A stretch of 64,000 nucleotides of DNA, from the NCBI GenBank assembly GCA_038064595.1, contig JBBTSV010000001.1:1915-65914 (forward strand), in the 5' to 3' direction. The notes beneath the pieces are model-generated. The model saw only the letters and a program-made list of their open reading frames with translations. It had not been told where the DNA came from and ran no database searches. Both the position numbers and the translations under genes were made by a program. Below, piece after piece: positions 675 to 51,240 of the stretch (within the stretch, counting starts at the first letter, position 1; each line of letters begins with the position of its first letter). The stretch is from Patescibacteria group bacterium (GTDB lineage: Bacteria > Patescibacteriota > Minisyncoccia > Phycocordibacterales > Phycocordibacteraceae).

Positions 675-747
675 GCCGCCTTAGCTCAGTTGGTAGAGCA
701 ACCCCTTCGTAAGGGGTAGGTCCTCAGTTCAAATCTGAGAGGCGGCT
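675..747 (+). tRNA. tRNA-Thr (anticodon CGU)
   Basis: Cloverleaf: acceptor GCCGCCT/AGGCGGC, D-arm GCTC..GAGC, anticodon stem ACCCC/GGGGT with loop TTCGTAA (CGT), T-arm CTCAG-TTCAAAT-CTGAG, discriminator T; CCA not encoded. Confidence 0.8.
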
Positions 748-768
748 CTAGGGGGTGTGGATAGAGGG

Positions 769-23064: not shown

Positions 23065-23135
23065 TGCGGGTTCGTCTAATGGTAGGACACATCCCTCTGG
23101 AGGATGGTATTGGGGTTCGAGTCCCTGACCCGCAG
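23065..23135 (+). tRNA. tRNA-Gln (anticodon CUG)
   Basis: Acceptor TGCGGGT/ACCCGCA (U1-A72), D-arm GTCT..GGAC, anticodon stem CATCC/GGATG with loop CTCTGGA, T-arm TGGGG-TTCGAGT-CCCTG. Confidence 0.8.
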
Positions 23136-23187
23136 CAAAAGTGCGAAGCAGCTTTTGCTGCGGGGAGCGAGGTCTGGGAAACCTCGC

Positions 23188-23245
23188 GTCAGGGACTCGA
23201 AAGCCGGAGCGCGACGGCGCGAGGCGGGGTCGCGCAAATTTCTAG
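23188..23245 (+). repeat. tRNA-linked repeat R1 (58 nt): inverted copy of the tRNA-Gln T-arm, then a conserved core with a GCGC-GACG-GCGC hairpin
   Basis: About 90% identical to 51113-51170; the 5' 14 nt are the exact reverse complement of the tRNA-Gln T-arm. Confidence 0.7.
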
Positions 23246-23257
23246 AGGGGAAATCGG

Positions 23258-23282
23258 GGAAATCGTGACAGTCACGATTTCC
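23258..23282. promoter_or_regulatory. 25-bp perfect palindrome GGAAATCGTGACAGTCACGATTTCC (candidate operator or recombination site)
   Basis: Perfect dyad symmetry, preceded by a GGAAATCG direct half-repeat. Confidence 0.5.
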
Positions 23283-39290: not shown

Positions 39291-39297
39291 AGATTGT

Positions 39298-39702
39298 GGA
39301 GGTGTCGAGAGTCGAACTCGAGTCCGATTCTGGCCATGAGAGCGCTTCTACGACGCATAGTCACCGTTATCTTTAAGATAGGATGCGAGGAACGGAGACG
39401 AAACCATTCCTACCCGATCCCTTATTTAGACGCAGCGGGCGGGAAGTCCGCGCGTCGATTCTACAGATGATTCCACCTCACTCTCCGACTGTAGAAACTC
39501 AGGGGAGTGAAATGTCGCGAGGCGAGAGGCCGTTAGGCGACCGCGTACGCGAACGTAAAGTCCTTACTACCGAAGTAGGGAGACTTTACGCTTGCAAGAG
39601 TGTTCTTGGCAAGTTTGGTTGCTCGTTAGATTAGAGTGATAGCCGAGCGTGCACTGCGTCGCACGTCTTTCAAGGTACAGACCGTCAAAGCCGGTCACCC
39701 CC
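39298..39702 (-). ncRNA. ssrA: tmRNA (ssrA), one-piece
   Basis: 5' GGGGGUG-ACCGGCUUUGACGGUCUG (acceptor plus D-analog) pairs with the 3' CACCUCC-A end (G3-U70), T-arm UCGAG-UUCGACU-CUCGA; downstream of smpB on the same strand. Confidence 0.75.
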
Positions 39703-42465: not shown

Positions 42466-42474
42466 TTTTTAGTC

Positions 42475-42547
42475 CGCCCCCCTGGACTCGAACCAGGAAC
42501 CGCAGAGGTATAAGCTCTGTGCTCTAACCATTGAGCTAGGGGCGGAT
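42475..42547 (-). tRNA. tRNA-Ile (anticodon UAU)
   Basis: Acceptor CCGCCCC/GGGGCGG, anticodon stem CAGAG/CTCTG with loop CTTATAC (UAU), T-arm CCTGG-TTCGAGT-CCAGG, discriminator A. Confidence 0.7.
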
Positions 42548-50933: not shown

Positions 50934-50971
50934 CCGGATAGAGGTTTTTCTGCTATAACTCATAGACGACG

Positions 50972-51056
50972 GAGGGTTCGCATAGAGGTCTAGTGCGCAC
51001 GCTTGGAAAGCGTGTGTGGGGAAACCCACCGAGGGTTCGAATCCCTCACCCTCCGC
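50972..51056 (+). tRNA. tRNA-Ser (anticodon GGA), type II with long variable arm
   Basis: Acceptor GGAGGGT/ACCCTCC, anticodon stem CACGC/GCGTG with loop TTGGAAA, variable arm GTGGG-GAAA-CCCAC, T-arm GAGGG-TTCGAAT-CCCTC. Confidence 0.85.
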
Positions 51057-51112
51057 AATGATTCGCAAAGACGGTTGGGAACCGTCTGCGCGAAGCATCA
51101 TTGCGCGAGATG

Positions 51113-51170
51113 TGAGAGATTCGAAGGCCGGAGGGCGACGGCCCGAGGCGGGGTAGCGCAAATTTCTAGC
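51113..51170 (+). repeat. tRNA-linked repeat R2 (58 nt): inverted tRNA-Ser T-arm copy plus a conserved core with a GGGC-GACG-GCCC hairpin
   Basis: About 90% identical to R1; two of the five mismatches are compensatory in the 4-bp stem. Confidence 0.7.
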
Positions 51171-51188
51171 AAGAAATTATGCGTGACC

Positions 51189-51207
51189 GAATCCCTCACC
51201 CTCCGCC
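51189..51207 (+). repeat. 19-nt direct duplicate of the tRNA-Ser 3' end (att-like scar)
   Basis: CGAATCCCTCACCCTCCGC identical to tRNA positions 51038-51056. Confidence 0.6.
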
Positions 51208-51240
51208 AGAAAGGAATGTTCTGCTATCATTGCTCTACCC

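Follow-up and report, generated by a model that had tools for sequence, protein, structure and literature searches.

The window, as we call the whole 64-kb stretch of Patescibacteria (CPR) DNA analysed here, holds four tRNA genes, two of which, for tRNA-Gln and tRNA-Ser, are followed by copies of the same short folded element. The copy at tRNA-Ser is complete and intact, while that at tRNA-Gln is an old, decayed insertion, a degenerate relic. Their parts are listed below.

tRNA-Ser locus
50971–51056, + strand: tRNA-Ser(GGA), the target gene (ARAGORN; Rfam tRNA, 55.6 bits)
51038–51056, + strand: first direct repeat (DR1), CGAATCCCTCACCCTCCGC, an exact 19-nt repeat
51057–51105, + strand: spacer or 'S module' (inverted repeat and folds)
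51103–51125, + strand: inverted copy of the target end (93% complementary; its helix P1 covaries and it tracks the cognate tRNA)
51127–51149, + strand: module helix P2 (P2a paired in 98% and P2b in 97% of cells; double changes in 6 of 7 pairs)
51152–51188, + strand: module helix P3 (98.7% of cells paired; G.U in 85 of 86)
51188–51206, + strand: second direct repeat (DR2), an exact 19-nt second copy of the tRNA-Ser 3′ end, identical to 51038–51056 and followed by CA

tRNA-Gln locus
23065–23136, + strand: tRNA-Gln(CTG), the target gene of the second copy (ARAGORN; Rfam)
23129–23164, + strand: spacer hairpin (13-nt inverted repeat, 100% complementary; fold)
23167–23187, + strand: side hairpin GCGAGGT ctgggaa ACCTCGC (read from the sequence and folded)
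23185–23201, + strand: inverted tRNA-Gln T-loop and T-stem 3′ strand (CGCGTCAGGGACTCGAA), 17 nt, 94% complementary to 23116–23132
23203–23269, + strand: decayed module (covariance-model match 23187–23281, 43.9 bits)

At the tRNA-Ser locus, the order is the tRNA gene, whose last 19 nt are DR1, a conserved spacer hairpin, the inverted T-loop and T-stem, a P2–P3 module with the terminus GTGAC (51187), and DR2; the insert between the exact 19-nt repeats of the tRNA end measures 150 nt. DR1 runs from T-loop position C56 to one base beyond the discriminator. It is evidently the functional 3′ end of tRNA-Ser, staying intact in relatives whose DR2 decays, and DR2 is a displaced, non-functional end. 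The S module reads AATGATTCGCAAAG, a variable 6-bp hairpin with a GGGA loop, and CTGCGCGAAGCATCATTGCG; it forms a long hairpin that also base pairs with the terminal bases of tRNA-Ser, and S modules with a covarying inner stem were also found elsewhere at tRNA-Ser, tRNA-Ile and tRNA-Leu loci. Within the inverted copy, 51103–51111 (GCGCGAGAT) complements the 3′ strand of the acceptor, though degenerately, and 51112–51125 (GTGAGAGATTCGAA) complements the T-loop, the 3′ strand of the T-stem and another 2 nt. This inverted copy is the 5′ strand of helix P1, with DR2 as the 3′ strand. P2 is made up of a GCC/GGC stem, a conserved GGAG/CGA internal loop, possibly of tandem G.A pairs, and the variable, covarying hairpin P2b (GGC GACG GCC), while P3 (GGTAGCGCAAATTTCT, loop AGCA, AGAAATT(A)TGCGTGACC) contains 15–16 bp, one bulged A and an invariant G.U pair.

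In the tRNA-Gln copy, the last 8 nt of the tRNA and the following AAAAG pair with CTTTTGCTGCGGG around a GCGAAGC mini-hairpin loop, and this spacer includes an inverted acceptor copy, GCTGCGG, at 23157–23163. The side hairpin separates the inverted acceptor from the inverted T-stem; an equivalent hairpin occupies the matching place in four relatives (L009, L018, L026 and L040). P2 (23203–23225) and the 5′ strand of P3 (23228–23243) are intact, but the 3′ strand of P3 has been remodelled to GGAAATCGTGAC (23258–23269) after a small duplication, and the covariance-model score is 43.9 bits compared with 100 bits for the tRNA-Ser copy. No DR2 or other second copy of the tRNA-Gln end was found anywhere in the 64-kb window, whereas L031, the orthologous tRNA-Gln locus, has an intact copy complete with DR2. 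We also considered a larger island downstream of the decayed copy and rejected it, as the tRNA-Gln end is not repeated within the 64 kb; judged by eye from their translations, the ORFs that follow resemble ordinary host genes. Separately, the L090 version of this locus carries a methyltransferase gene and a Gmad2-domain gene.

These data extend an earlier sequence-only reading of the window, which had described a 58-nt core shared by the two loci, beginning in each with an inverted copy of the T-arm of its own tRNA. The core is real (51 of 58 positions identical, 88%), as is the inverted T-arm (14 of 14 positions at tRNA-Gln; 13 of 14, at 51112–51125, at tRNA-Ser). Its coordinates were correct for tRNA-Gln (23188–23245) and one base too high for tRNA-Ser, where it occupies 51112–51169. 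The proposal that the three positions differing between the copies each match the cognate tRNA holds for all three at tRNA-Gln and for only two of three at tRNA-Ser, where A51117 faces C. Within the window, a 25-nt core motif has exactly two occurrences, where shuffled sequence gives an expectation of 0.00. At tRNA-Ser, beyond the 58 nt lie the 3′ strand of a 16-bp hairpin, reaching to GTGAC (51187), and then the exact 19-nt DR2. The peptide 'ATARGGVAQIS' shared by ORFs at the two loci had been dismissed as an artefact, and we agree that it falls in spurious ORFs and that the element is non-coding.

Searching with a covariance model recovered 89 copies on 77 CPR contigs. The module of about 75 bases is protein-less, tightly folded and apparently belongs to an undescribed family of small CPR insertion elements; keyword and motif-sequence literature searches found no published description. 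Elements measure about 85–150 nt and contain no ORF. Most of the 75 distinct copies share the tRNA-Ser layout, with the insert between repeats of the target end, and the element ends read ..TCGAA-R-GCCGGAG and ..ATGCGTGAC followed by CGAAT. Some 70% of copies lie behind tRNA genes, which represent 16 or more specificities, and the earlier suggestion that these structured non-coding elements form a family associated with tRNA 3′ ends is right. The association is not exclusive, since a tRNA is absent from the 300 nt around 22 of the 73 scored copies, although some of these are contig-edge artefacts. Other sites include rplL 3′ ends, both ends of a 5S rRNA gene and further positions, among them intergenic sites with direct repeats of their own. 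At non-tRNA sites, orientation relative to neighbouring ORFs is mixed by crude ORF calls. One 171-kb contig carries three copies of the strict motif.

We then examined the fold across the family. Pairing is preserved in 89.5% of cells with double changes in 29 of 34 pairs, values reached by 0 of 500 shuffles, and fold z-scores range from −8.3 to −8.4. All helices covary, P1 included. The compensatory GC stem noticed between the two copies (GCGC/GCGC and GGGC/GCCC) is helix P2b, paired in 97% of cells over 87 distinct sequences with double changes in 4 of 4 pairs. Covariation, the bulged A, the invariant G.U pair and an excess of G.U over A.C pairs in P3 (45 and 0) together support, at the level of compared sequences, a fold on one strand. 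This support fits RNA and single-stranded DNA alike, and tolerance of G.T does not separate them. Finally, the inverted segment follows the adjacent tRNA across the family, as had been proposed from two copies: among 19 tRNA-linked members, 0 of 20,000 permutations reached the observed score, and the tracking holds with the T-loop left out.

Such conservation might also be expected of a structured RNA useful to the host: a part of the tRNA 3′ trailer, either freed by tRNA processing as a stable small RNA or serving as a module for processing, termination or folding control, and spread by occasional duplication. The inverted segment would then have the tRNA T-arm and the decoy DR2 as alternative pairing partners. 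The conserved covarying structure, with its invariant G.U, bulged A and GGAG/CGA loop, and the acceptance of G.U but not A.C pairs suit this explanation. So does orientation, with 51 of 73 scored copies lying on the same strand as the upstream tRNA, between it and the next promoter-like motif, and so does the recurrence of the module in distant genomes at the same genes, tRNA-Ser(GGA) in the window, L016 and L025, and tRNA-Gln in the window, L031 and L081. Taken together, moreover, the inverted acceptor, the side hairpin and the inverted T-stem look like an acceptor/T-arm mimic. However, one copy is antisense to the 5S rRNA gene that it flanks and two copies in L051 point away from each other, which weakens the 'processing or termination module' offered by the sequence-only reading while leaving it some standing. 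Copies located at the ends of protein genes, or between genes and flanked by direct repeats of their own, also argue against a host RNA, as do the decay of the tRNA-Gln copy and the lack of any match to an Rfam family or ribozyme core. In L084, a 7.6-kb island with toxin–antitoxin genes lies between DR1 and an intact module with DR2; most of its larger ORFs are on the strand opposite to the tRNA and module, and the tRNA is thereby parted from the module. The direct repeats, tandem arrays and nested insertions are also left unexplained, and we regard a host-useful RNA as unlikely.

The direct repeats have a constant left edge, at C56 and adjoining GTGAC, and a variable right edge. A repeat scoring at least 12 is present in 37 of 51 tRNA-linked copies; lengths range from about 7 to 40 nt or more, with a median of about 18, and right edges cluster at the mature tRNA 3′ end plus 0–3 nt. 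The two repeats differ in fate. DR2 carries A58 changed to G in L030 and L054, has a broken acceptor in L021, retains only 10 nt in L008 and L060, and is split by a mini-hairpin in many loci. Comparison of these loci shows that DR2 decays while DR1 does not, and thus marks DR1 as the functional repeat.

In the broad sense, the family is mobile: it has an empty as well as filled sites, unrelated targets, and nested and tandem copies. The tRNA-Val(GAC) site is filled in L008 and L060 and empty in L019, and is followed by the same gene in each. At an rplL end (L042), at least three units stand in a tandem array, in direct rather than alternating orientation, and nested or truncated copies are present in L003, L013, L015, L005/L023 and L022. 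The S-type spacer also occurs at tRNA-Ile and tRNA-Leu, and in L024 the distal GCG complements the Ser end, not the Ile end. L022 has two rplL ends, one in frame and one within the element; each encodes KVTLK-stop, and they are set apart by 6 synonymous differences, indicating that the element brought a once-functional target end from another lineage. An identical 61-nt module is found at 12 loci, where the target and inverted-copy flanks differ and each is cognate to its own locus, which suggests that the element acquires its inverted segment by copying the target when it inserts. Strain-level comparison relied on exact-protein look-ups of flanking genes and assembled contigs; in it, 7–8 same-strain contigs from other samples carry both copies or break inside, and several short-read contigs of the window's strain end inside the element. 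Comparison with relatives therefore yielded an empty orthologous site in L019 but none within the strain, and we saw no within-population polymorphism or excised or circular forms that would mark ongoing activity in these data.

Among the three origins offered by the sequence-only reading, integration, in the form of a MITE with target-derived inverted termini, fits best because of the target-end direct repeats, the decay of the distal repeat, the tandem and nested copies, the empty orthologous site and the presence of one identical module at many targets. The element is nonetheless neither a classical MITE nor a simple island scar: the structure of the module is conserved, and its sequence nearly invariant, in CPR lineages that are only distantly related. 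In favour of an ordinary DDE-type MITE or a REP/BIME-like palindrome, moved by a transposase or RAYT, the element is small, ORF-less and present in several copies per genome, and mosaic hairpin units, among them relics with P2 alone and additional P3 units, make up the copies at gene 3′ ends. Such an element would, however, bear its own terminal inverted repeats, whereas the sole inverted pair here is target-derived and differs per target, and its direct repeats would be of a fixed 2–10 bp rather than variable. With array units direct instead of alternating, and no related IS or RAYT gene seen in the flanking ORFs, we consider this explanation highly improbable.

A scar of a classical integrase island or prophage would be an attL/attR pair left after deletion of the interior. 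A tRNA 3′-end repeat starting in the T-loop is the signature of integrases that target tRNA genes and reportedly, following Williams (2002, Nucleic Acids Res), their textbook sign. The flanking repeat is present here, and in L084 an island does lie between DR1 and the module with DR2. In contrast, the other hallmark, an encoded tyrosine or serine recombinase, was not found: no integrase was detected in any flank, and none, nor another recombinase, by Pfam in the 7.6-kb L084 island. The same intact, covarying 75-nt module would need to have survived dozens of separate deletions, and no single integrase specificity explains an identical module at many tRNAs. We also found no relatives in phage, plasmid and IMG/VR collections. 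Together, these results make island scars very improbable.

More generally, all-against-all BLAST of flanking ORFs revealed no neighbour protein recurring across loci, and the recurrent Pfam families of 148 flanking ORFs included no integrase, transposase, recombinase or reverse transcriptase. The last of these bears on retro-insertion, in which a template-switching reverse transcriptase would join module RNA to abundant RNA ends (tRNA, 5S rRNA, rplL mRNA) and chimaeric cDNAs would recombine into matching genes, template jumps and snap-back synthesis giving sense and antisense copies of the RNA ends. Every identified target is a very abundant RNA, and the inverted copy reads as a cDNA begun at the tRNA 3′ end and stopped at T54, with the encoded CCA included in L005/L023 (TGGTGCC). 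The clustered right edges, variable repeat lengths like those of target-primed events, and inverted copies that look freshly templated for each target point the same way. Nevertheless, no reverse transcriptase is linked to the element, and repeats pass the mature RNA end into flanking DNA in L044 (33 nt), L074, L047 and the L079 5S copies. The synonymous-only rplL pair in L022 is better explained by a carried gene end than by local duplication of the target, and simple serial RNA jumps do not give sense and antisense target copies on one strand. We therefore judge retro-insertion distinctly unlikely.

The best reading, which we hold with somewhat less than even confidence, is that both loci are members of one family of ORF-less, structured CPR insertion elements, probably moved as a folded single strand by an enzyme encoded elsewhere. 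We infer that such a non-autonomous integrative mini-element would enter inside the tRNA T-loop, with its right junction between T55 and C56. It would supply its own copy of the gene 3′ end (DR1), by which the tRNA would stay functional, and the original 3′ end would be pushed downstream as DR2, free to decay. Between the repeats would lie an optional spacer hairpin, the inverted target copy and the conserved P2–P3 module. As the inverted copy can pair with either direct repeat, the whole element on one strand could fold into a target-mimicking stem capped by the module. It would presumably move in this form, most likely as single-stranded DNA, and a recombinase or nuclease encoded elsewhere may join it to the target, by analogy with CTXphi attP(+) and integron attC. 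A double-stranded DNA circle of 85–150 bp is hard to bend, which we count in favour of single-strand movement, and the insertion layout matches the published CTXphi product, which we count in favour of the mechanism. The circle junction is predicted to be ..ATGCGTGAC joined to CGAATCCCTCACC.. and the spacer, and a precise empty site to be ..GAGGGTT joined to CGAATCCCTCACCCTCCGCCAGAAAGG.

Several observations sit less easily with a mini-element of this kind. A simple carried-attP model does not explain a templated inverted copy; one fixed geometry fits neither the upstream 5S copy in L079, with its distal functional copy, nor the mini-hairpins that split DR2; and the strong conservation of sequence and structure equally fits a host-useful RNA. 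The inverted copy might instead be a programmable guide, a 10–20-nt antisense copy that a two-hairpin scaffold shows to a trans-acting CPR enzyme, with insertion where the guide pairs and re-templating of the guide for each target. We think this quite improbable. If true, it would amount to nucleic-acid-guided, self-retargeting insertion, distinct from CRISPR-associated transposons, IS110 bridge RNAs and TnpB.

The genomes of CPR/Patescibacteria are tiny and few mobile elements are known from them, and the family seems to occupy a large share of their tRNA genes while being invisible to current annotation and breaking assemblies. As a mini-element, it would be close to the smallest conceivable integrative element, essentially an attachment hairpin alone, which repairs the gene that it interrupts and whose stem is rewritten to fit each new target. 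Its mobilizing enzyme, if found, could be a recombinase, nuclease or reverse transcriptase that reads a scaffold and a target-mimicking or pairing helix, and may be of value for programmable insertion. The covariance model can already mark copies and the duplicated tRNA, 5S and rplL ends, which when unmarked yield spurious ORFs and pseudo-tRNA calls.

We finally compared the element with known systems. At gathering scores, the Rfam 15 matches in the window were confined to tRNAs, tmRNA, RNase P and a SAM riboswitch, scanning the two loci permissively (E up to 10) gave only chance-level matches, and no hammerhead, twister, pistol, hatchet or HDV match overlapped the module, whose three-way junction lacks a hammerhead core by eye; we thus rejected a known RNA family or ribozyme. 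A tRNA T-loop intron was rejected because the upstream tRNA is complete and the distal 3′ end, decaying in many loci, is not used. We also set aside a TnpB/IscB omega-RNA or crRNA-like scaffold with a guide, as no tnpB, iscB or cas gene is adjacent and an intact DR1 match persists beside GGTT in the occupied allele, which would mean self-targeting. The RtT repeats of E. coli tyrT, reportedly described by Egan and Landy in 1978, lie downstream of a tRNA gene and each hold about 19 nt of its 3′ end. RtT (RF00391) is, however, a single locus rather than a dispersed family, and it has no similarity in sequence or structure to our element (13 bits against a gathering score of 45, E = 9).

Like P4-type integrase islands at tRNA genes, the element is inserted in the T-loop, supplies the tRNA 3′ end and displaces the old end as a direct repeat. 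It differs in being 100 to 1000 times smaller, in lacking an integrase, in its extra inverted target copy and in the use of at least 16 tRNA specificities by one module family. With IS200/IS605 ends, PATEs and REP/REPIN sequences, it shares imperfect hairpins with bulged bases, which in those systems are subterminal and act single-stranded, and a very small, non-autonomous form, there seen in derivatives; in IS608, a guide beside the hairpin foot pairs with the cleavage or target site. Those systems neither duplicate the target nor copy a target gene end, and neither a Y1 transposase nor a RAYT turned up in the neighbourhood of our copies. Integron attC is a recombination site defined by single-strand folding and not by its sequence, a property that our element may share; both have an imperfect hairpin with extrahelical bases and a variable terminal structure, and both form arrays of ORF-less units downstream of one primary site. 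In our element, by contrast, the stem copies the end of the target gene and the junction repeat spans about 7 to 40 nt or more instead of 7 nt. Identity with attC was rejected, there being no RYYYAAC/GTTRRRY core site at either end, no intI-like neighbour and no attI. A dif-like Xer site (11-6-11) was rejected too, as the P3 arms only loosely resemble one XerC arm and stand 14 nt apart, the wrong spacing, and the stem copies the tRNA T-loop, T-stem and acceptor.

CTXphi attP(+) and the Xer-exploiting integrative elements (IMEX) differ from our element in target, which is dif rather than the tRNA T-loop, rplL and 5S ends, and in that the CTXphi genome is present whereas our element (85–150 nt) is barely more than the hairpin. 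Integration of CTXphi yields one functional target site together with two target-like copies that do not function, oppositely oriented and about 90 nt apart (PMC3089051). In both CTXphi attP(+)/IMEX and the family described here, two opposed target-like sequences, about 75–90 nt apart, can pair into a stem that mimics the target, no recombinase is encoded, and tandem arrays form at the regenerated site.

Two of the four tRNA genes in the window are followed by a copy of the element, here called the Gln and Ser copies. None of the four encodes CCA. ARAGORN and Rfam also identified an RNase P RNA and a SAM riboswitch in the window.

RNA genes and element copies in the window
675-748: tRNA-Thr; element absent
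23065-23136, + strand: tRNA-Gln(CTG) (ARAGORN and Rfam)
23129-23281, + strand: Gln copy, a decayed element
39294-39702, - strand: tmRNA, with an ordinary hairpin next 3'; element absent
42472-42545, - strand: tRNA-Ile, anticodon TAT; element absent
50971-51056, + strand: tRNA-Ser(GGA) (ARAGORN and Rfam)
51038-51206, + strand: Ser copy, a complete element

The sequence-only reading had described tRNA-linked paired repeats, each with an inverted copy of its own tRNA's T-arm and a covarying GC hairpin; the observation was confirmed and extended, and its interpretation as a whole was supported in part. The shared cores, at 23188-23245 and 51112-51169, are 88% identical (the Gln coordinates had been placed correctly, those of Ser one base too high), and a 25-nt core motif has two exact occurrences in the window, with 0 expected by chance. 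Ahead of each core, the T-loop and T-stem 3' strand of the adjoining tRNA indeed appear in reverse complement (Gln, 17 nt, 94%; Ser, 14 nt, 93%). The three inverted-segment positions that differ between the copies, all said to match the cognate tRNA, do so in Gln (3/3); in Ser, two of three match.

The Ser element extends past the end first assigned to it. After ..TTTCTAG comes the 3' strand of a 16-bp hairpin, P3, ending in GTGAC at 51187. Directly 3' lies CGAATCCCTCACCCTCCGC (51188-51206), identical to the 19-nt end of the tRNA-Ser gene (51038-51056) and spanning T-loop C56 to one base beyond the discriminator. We denote the functional tRNA 3' end DR1 and its displaced downstream copy DR2. 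The locus thus runs, in order, tRNA (DR1), spacer hairpin, inverted copy of the target, P2, P3 and DR2: a 150-nt insertion in the T-loop of the tRNA gene that brings along its own replacement for the 3' end. The front half is shared by the Gln copy, which has in addition a side hairpin separating the inverted acceptor part from the inverted T-stem part, and a remodelled P3 3' strand; no DR2 for it was found anywhere in the window. It scored 43.9 bits with a covariance model versus 100 bits for the Ser copy, and the model found no third copy in the window. A promoter-like motif (TTCTGCTATAAC / TTCTGCTATCAT), probably the CPR -10 region, lies at 50945-50960, 5' of tRNA-Ser, and at 51220-51233, just past the Ser DR2 and before the next gene. 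Similar motifs (TGCTATAAC or TGTTATAAC) occur 5' of tRNAs and genes in L008, L016 and L019 (L numbers denote loci from other genomes or metagenomes carrying, or compared for, the element).

An exact-motif scan of one genome per species returned 33 loci, all from CPR/Patescibacteria MAGs (labelled Paceibacterota, Kaiserbacteria, Nomurabacteria, Minisyncoccia or 'Saccharibacteria'), and a P3-only motif added 52 loci from metagenomes. The covariance model, trained on 33 copies, recovered 89 copies from 77 non-redundant sources at an E of 1e-8 or better. The motif had no match in IMG/VR, GenBank phages or PLSDB plasmids, and the family is confined to CPR bacteria within all collections searched. 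It looks undescribed: no Rfam family matched, and literature searches, including for the motif sequence itself, found no description. Contig ends in short-read assemblies of the window's strain (L087-L089, L091, L092) fall within the element or the tRNA next to it: three contigs begin within P3 of the Ser copy and two end within tRNA-Gln; the family evidently fragments CPR assemblies.

The conserved module comprises two hairpins, P2 (P2a, P2b) and P3, and is accompanied by a helix, P1, between the inverted copy and DR2.

Consensus of the fold
P1: target-specific helix, inverted segment paired with the start of DR2; then AA-R
P2a: GCC/GGC, with variants GGC/GCC, GTC/GAC and AGC/GCC
Internal loop after P2a: GGAG/CGA, conserved
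P2b: freely covarying hairpin, then GG
P3: GGTCGCGCAAATTTCY-AGCA-RGAAATT(A)TGYGTGACC, with a bulged A and one G.U pair in 85/86 sequences

On the alignment of covariance matches, which was fitted to the model and is thus biased towards the structure, 89.5% of cells were paired and 29 of 34 pairs showed double changes. No shuffle among 500 reached any observed measure on this alignment, and slid controls paired at just 30-50%. An unfitted MAFFT alignment agreed (85.3% paired, 21 pairs with double changes). P3 pairs include 45 G.U and 0 A.C, indicating a fold of the + strand alone. By comparison with shuffles the complete Ser unit folds far better, at z -8.3 for RNA and z -8.4 for DNA. When P2b is left out, window positions 51127-51153 (GCCGGAG..GAGGCGGGG) are nearly the reverse complement of a tRNA-Ser(GGA) 3' end (CCCCGCCTCCGC in L025). 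Judging by this resemblance, the module may itself be the fossil of an inverted tRNA-Ser end that received a hairpin insertion, and this would indicate a founder insertion at tRNA-Ser. Spacer-hairpin tips frequently read GCGAAGC (window 23143-23149; also L020, L027 and L044). As DNA this sequence reportedly forms an exceptionally stable mini-hairpin (Hirao and colleagues), and the tips are therefore a small hint of a single-stranded DNA form.

A same-strand tRNA lies upstream, within 300 nt, of 51 of the 73 distinct copies scored. The tRNAs concerned represent at least 16 amino-acid specificities and about 27 anticodons, and a direct repeat of the tRNA end is clear in 37 of the 51 copies. The left edge of the repeat is fixed (..GGTT|C56 in DR1, ..GTGAC|C56 in DR2), while the right edge varies. 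Inverted segments matched their cognate tRNA at a mean of 11.6 of 14 positions, compared with 9.1 for non-cognate pairs; 0 of 20,000 permutations reached this score, and the result holds with the T-stem part alone. Among tRNA-linked copies the inverted segment thus tracks its own tRNA, and even the unusual T-loop TGCAAGT of the L013 tRNA-Met is mirrored. In ten loci (L018, L026, L039, L040, L047, L057, L074, L081, L083 and L084), a 14-nt mini-hairpin, AAGYGTAATCRCGG (also AAGCGTACTCGCGG), just past GTGAC interrupts DR2 in its T-loop part, between CGA and TTC. The hairpin may point to a second site of insertion or crossover, at A58.

Several observations argue for insertion rather than an ancient fixed feature. 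Decay hits DR2 and spares DR1: the DR2 of L030 and L054 has G for A58, that of L021 has a broken acceptor, and that of L008 and L060 is down to only 10 nt. With the same downstream gene, the tRNA-Val(GAC) locus is occupied in L008 and L060 and empty in L019. An identical 61-nt module occurs at 12 loci; its target and inverted-copy flanks differ among them, and every flank is cognate to the locus where it lies. Altogether, 66 copies comprise 46 module sequence variants. The Ser-type spacer module recurs beside tRNA-Ile and tRNA-Leu, and in L024 the distal GCG of this spacer remains a complement of the Ser end, not of the Ile end. Nested or truncated copies recur, several broken at the P2|P3 junction (L005/L023, L013, L015, L046), and L023 exceeds its close relative L005 by one P3 unit. 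Separately, a site without a tRNA at L051:539-775 has two modules arranged back to back, in opposite orientation and separated by about 50 nt, a layout found at no other locus of the set.

Targets other than tRNAs, each with its own direct repeat, include a 5S rRNA gene, the last codons of rplL (L029, L022 and L042, the last with a tandem array of at least three units) and further sites.

The 5S rRNA locus (L079:460-950)
514-577, + strand: upstream module, preceded by a duplicated 5S 5' end
626-731: 5S rRNA gene (70.5 bits), with modules at both ends
762-851, - strand (antisense to the 5S gene): downstream module, followed by a ~70-nt duplicate of the 5S 3' part that contains an inserted hairpin

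In L022, the in-frame rplL end (AAA GTG ACA CTA AAA TAG) and the in-element copy (AAG GTT ACG CTT AAG TAA) both specify KVTLK-stop, their only differences being six synonymous positions, and each is followed by its own inverted copy. Hence the element brought in a gene end that had once been functional in another lineage, and replacement by a carried target copy fits better than duplication of the local target.

The same layout (spacer hairpin, inverted tRNA end, 75-95 nt of cargo, direct repeat) also occurs with cargo unrelated to P2-P3, so the architecture is wider than this module family.

Loci with other cargo
L013:7056-7225: tRNA-Asp locus
L019:781-950: tRNA-Glu locus
L018 4160-4300, minus strand: second element

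Type B cargo starts with ACCTTGCGAGCATACTTTGC, and in L019 ends with the mini-hairpin motif AAGYGTAATCRCGG / AAGCGTACTCGCGG; type C cargo sits at a tRNA-Asp.

All-against-all comparison of flanking ORFs revealed only syntenic housekeeping genes in common, and no integrase, transposase or reverse transcriptase was among the recurrent Pfam families of 148 ORFs within 4.5 kb of modules. One locus carries an island:
L084:3841-11621, - strand: 7.6-kb island exactly between tRNA-Gly(CCC) and the block of spacer, inverted copy, module and DR2

In L040, L061 and L068 this block directly and contiguously follows the tRNA. The island's junctions have only CAC in common. It encodes an APS kinase, a sulfotransferase-like protein, a histidine phosphatase, a cytidine-deaminase-like protein, an archaeal-type AdoMet synthetase and two toxin-antitoxin pairs, with no recombinase or integrase; a HigB/HigA-like pair and an RHH protein are among its products.

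Layout, fold, target tracking, spread and the lack of a linked enzyme being observed, we infer for the mode of movement that the element would integrate as a folded single-stranded intermediate through a trans-acting recombinase or nuclease. In CTXphi, XerC exchanges one strand between folded attP(+) and dif, leaving one functional target copy and two non-functional ones in opposite orientation, 75-90 nt apart (PMC3089051). A folded single strand is favoured because the integrated layout equals this product, because the conserved fold is strand-specific, and because a double-stranded circle of 85-150 bp makes a poor substrate for recombination. The presence of identical modules beside inverted copies that each fit a different target suggests that this copy is templated from the target at every insertion, which a carried-attP model leaves unexplained. 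A retro-insertion route, a live rival, accounts for this copying from each target and also agrees with every identified target being a very abundant RNA; set against it is the carried-end replacement preferred over local-target duplication in the L022 rplL. A further weakness of the favoured mechanism is that neither an enzyme nor a circular form was observed, and contigs of the window's own strain showed no active presence/absence polymorphism. An RNA function useful to the host could coexist with mobility.

With no terminal inverted repeats of its own and no fixed short target duplication, the element is not a classical MITE, and the lack of an Rfam match sets it apart from known RNA families. 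We file it as a variant within the general class of non-autonomous integrative or insertion elements, outside every named family and mechanistically unusual enough to merit experimental follow-up. Integron attC is a recombination site set by a single-strand fold with variable terminal structure. The element differs from CTXphi attP in having no dif-like site, from attC in having no attC core sites and from tRNA-targeting islands in having no integrase. In its working it most resembles attP or attC, in what would be a folded-strand site without an enzyme of its own, and the islands, in T-loop entry, a replacement 3' end and a displaced repeat.
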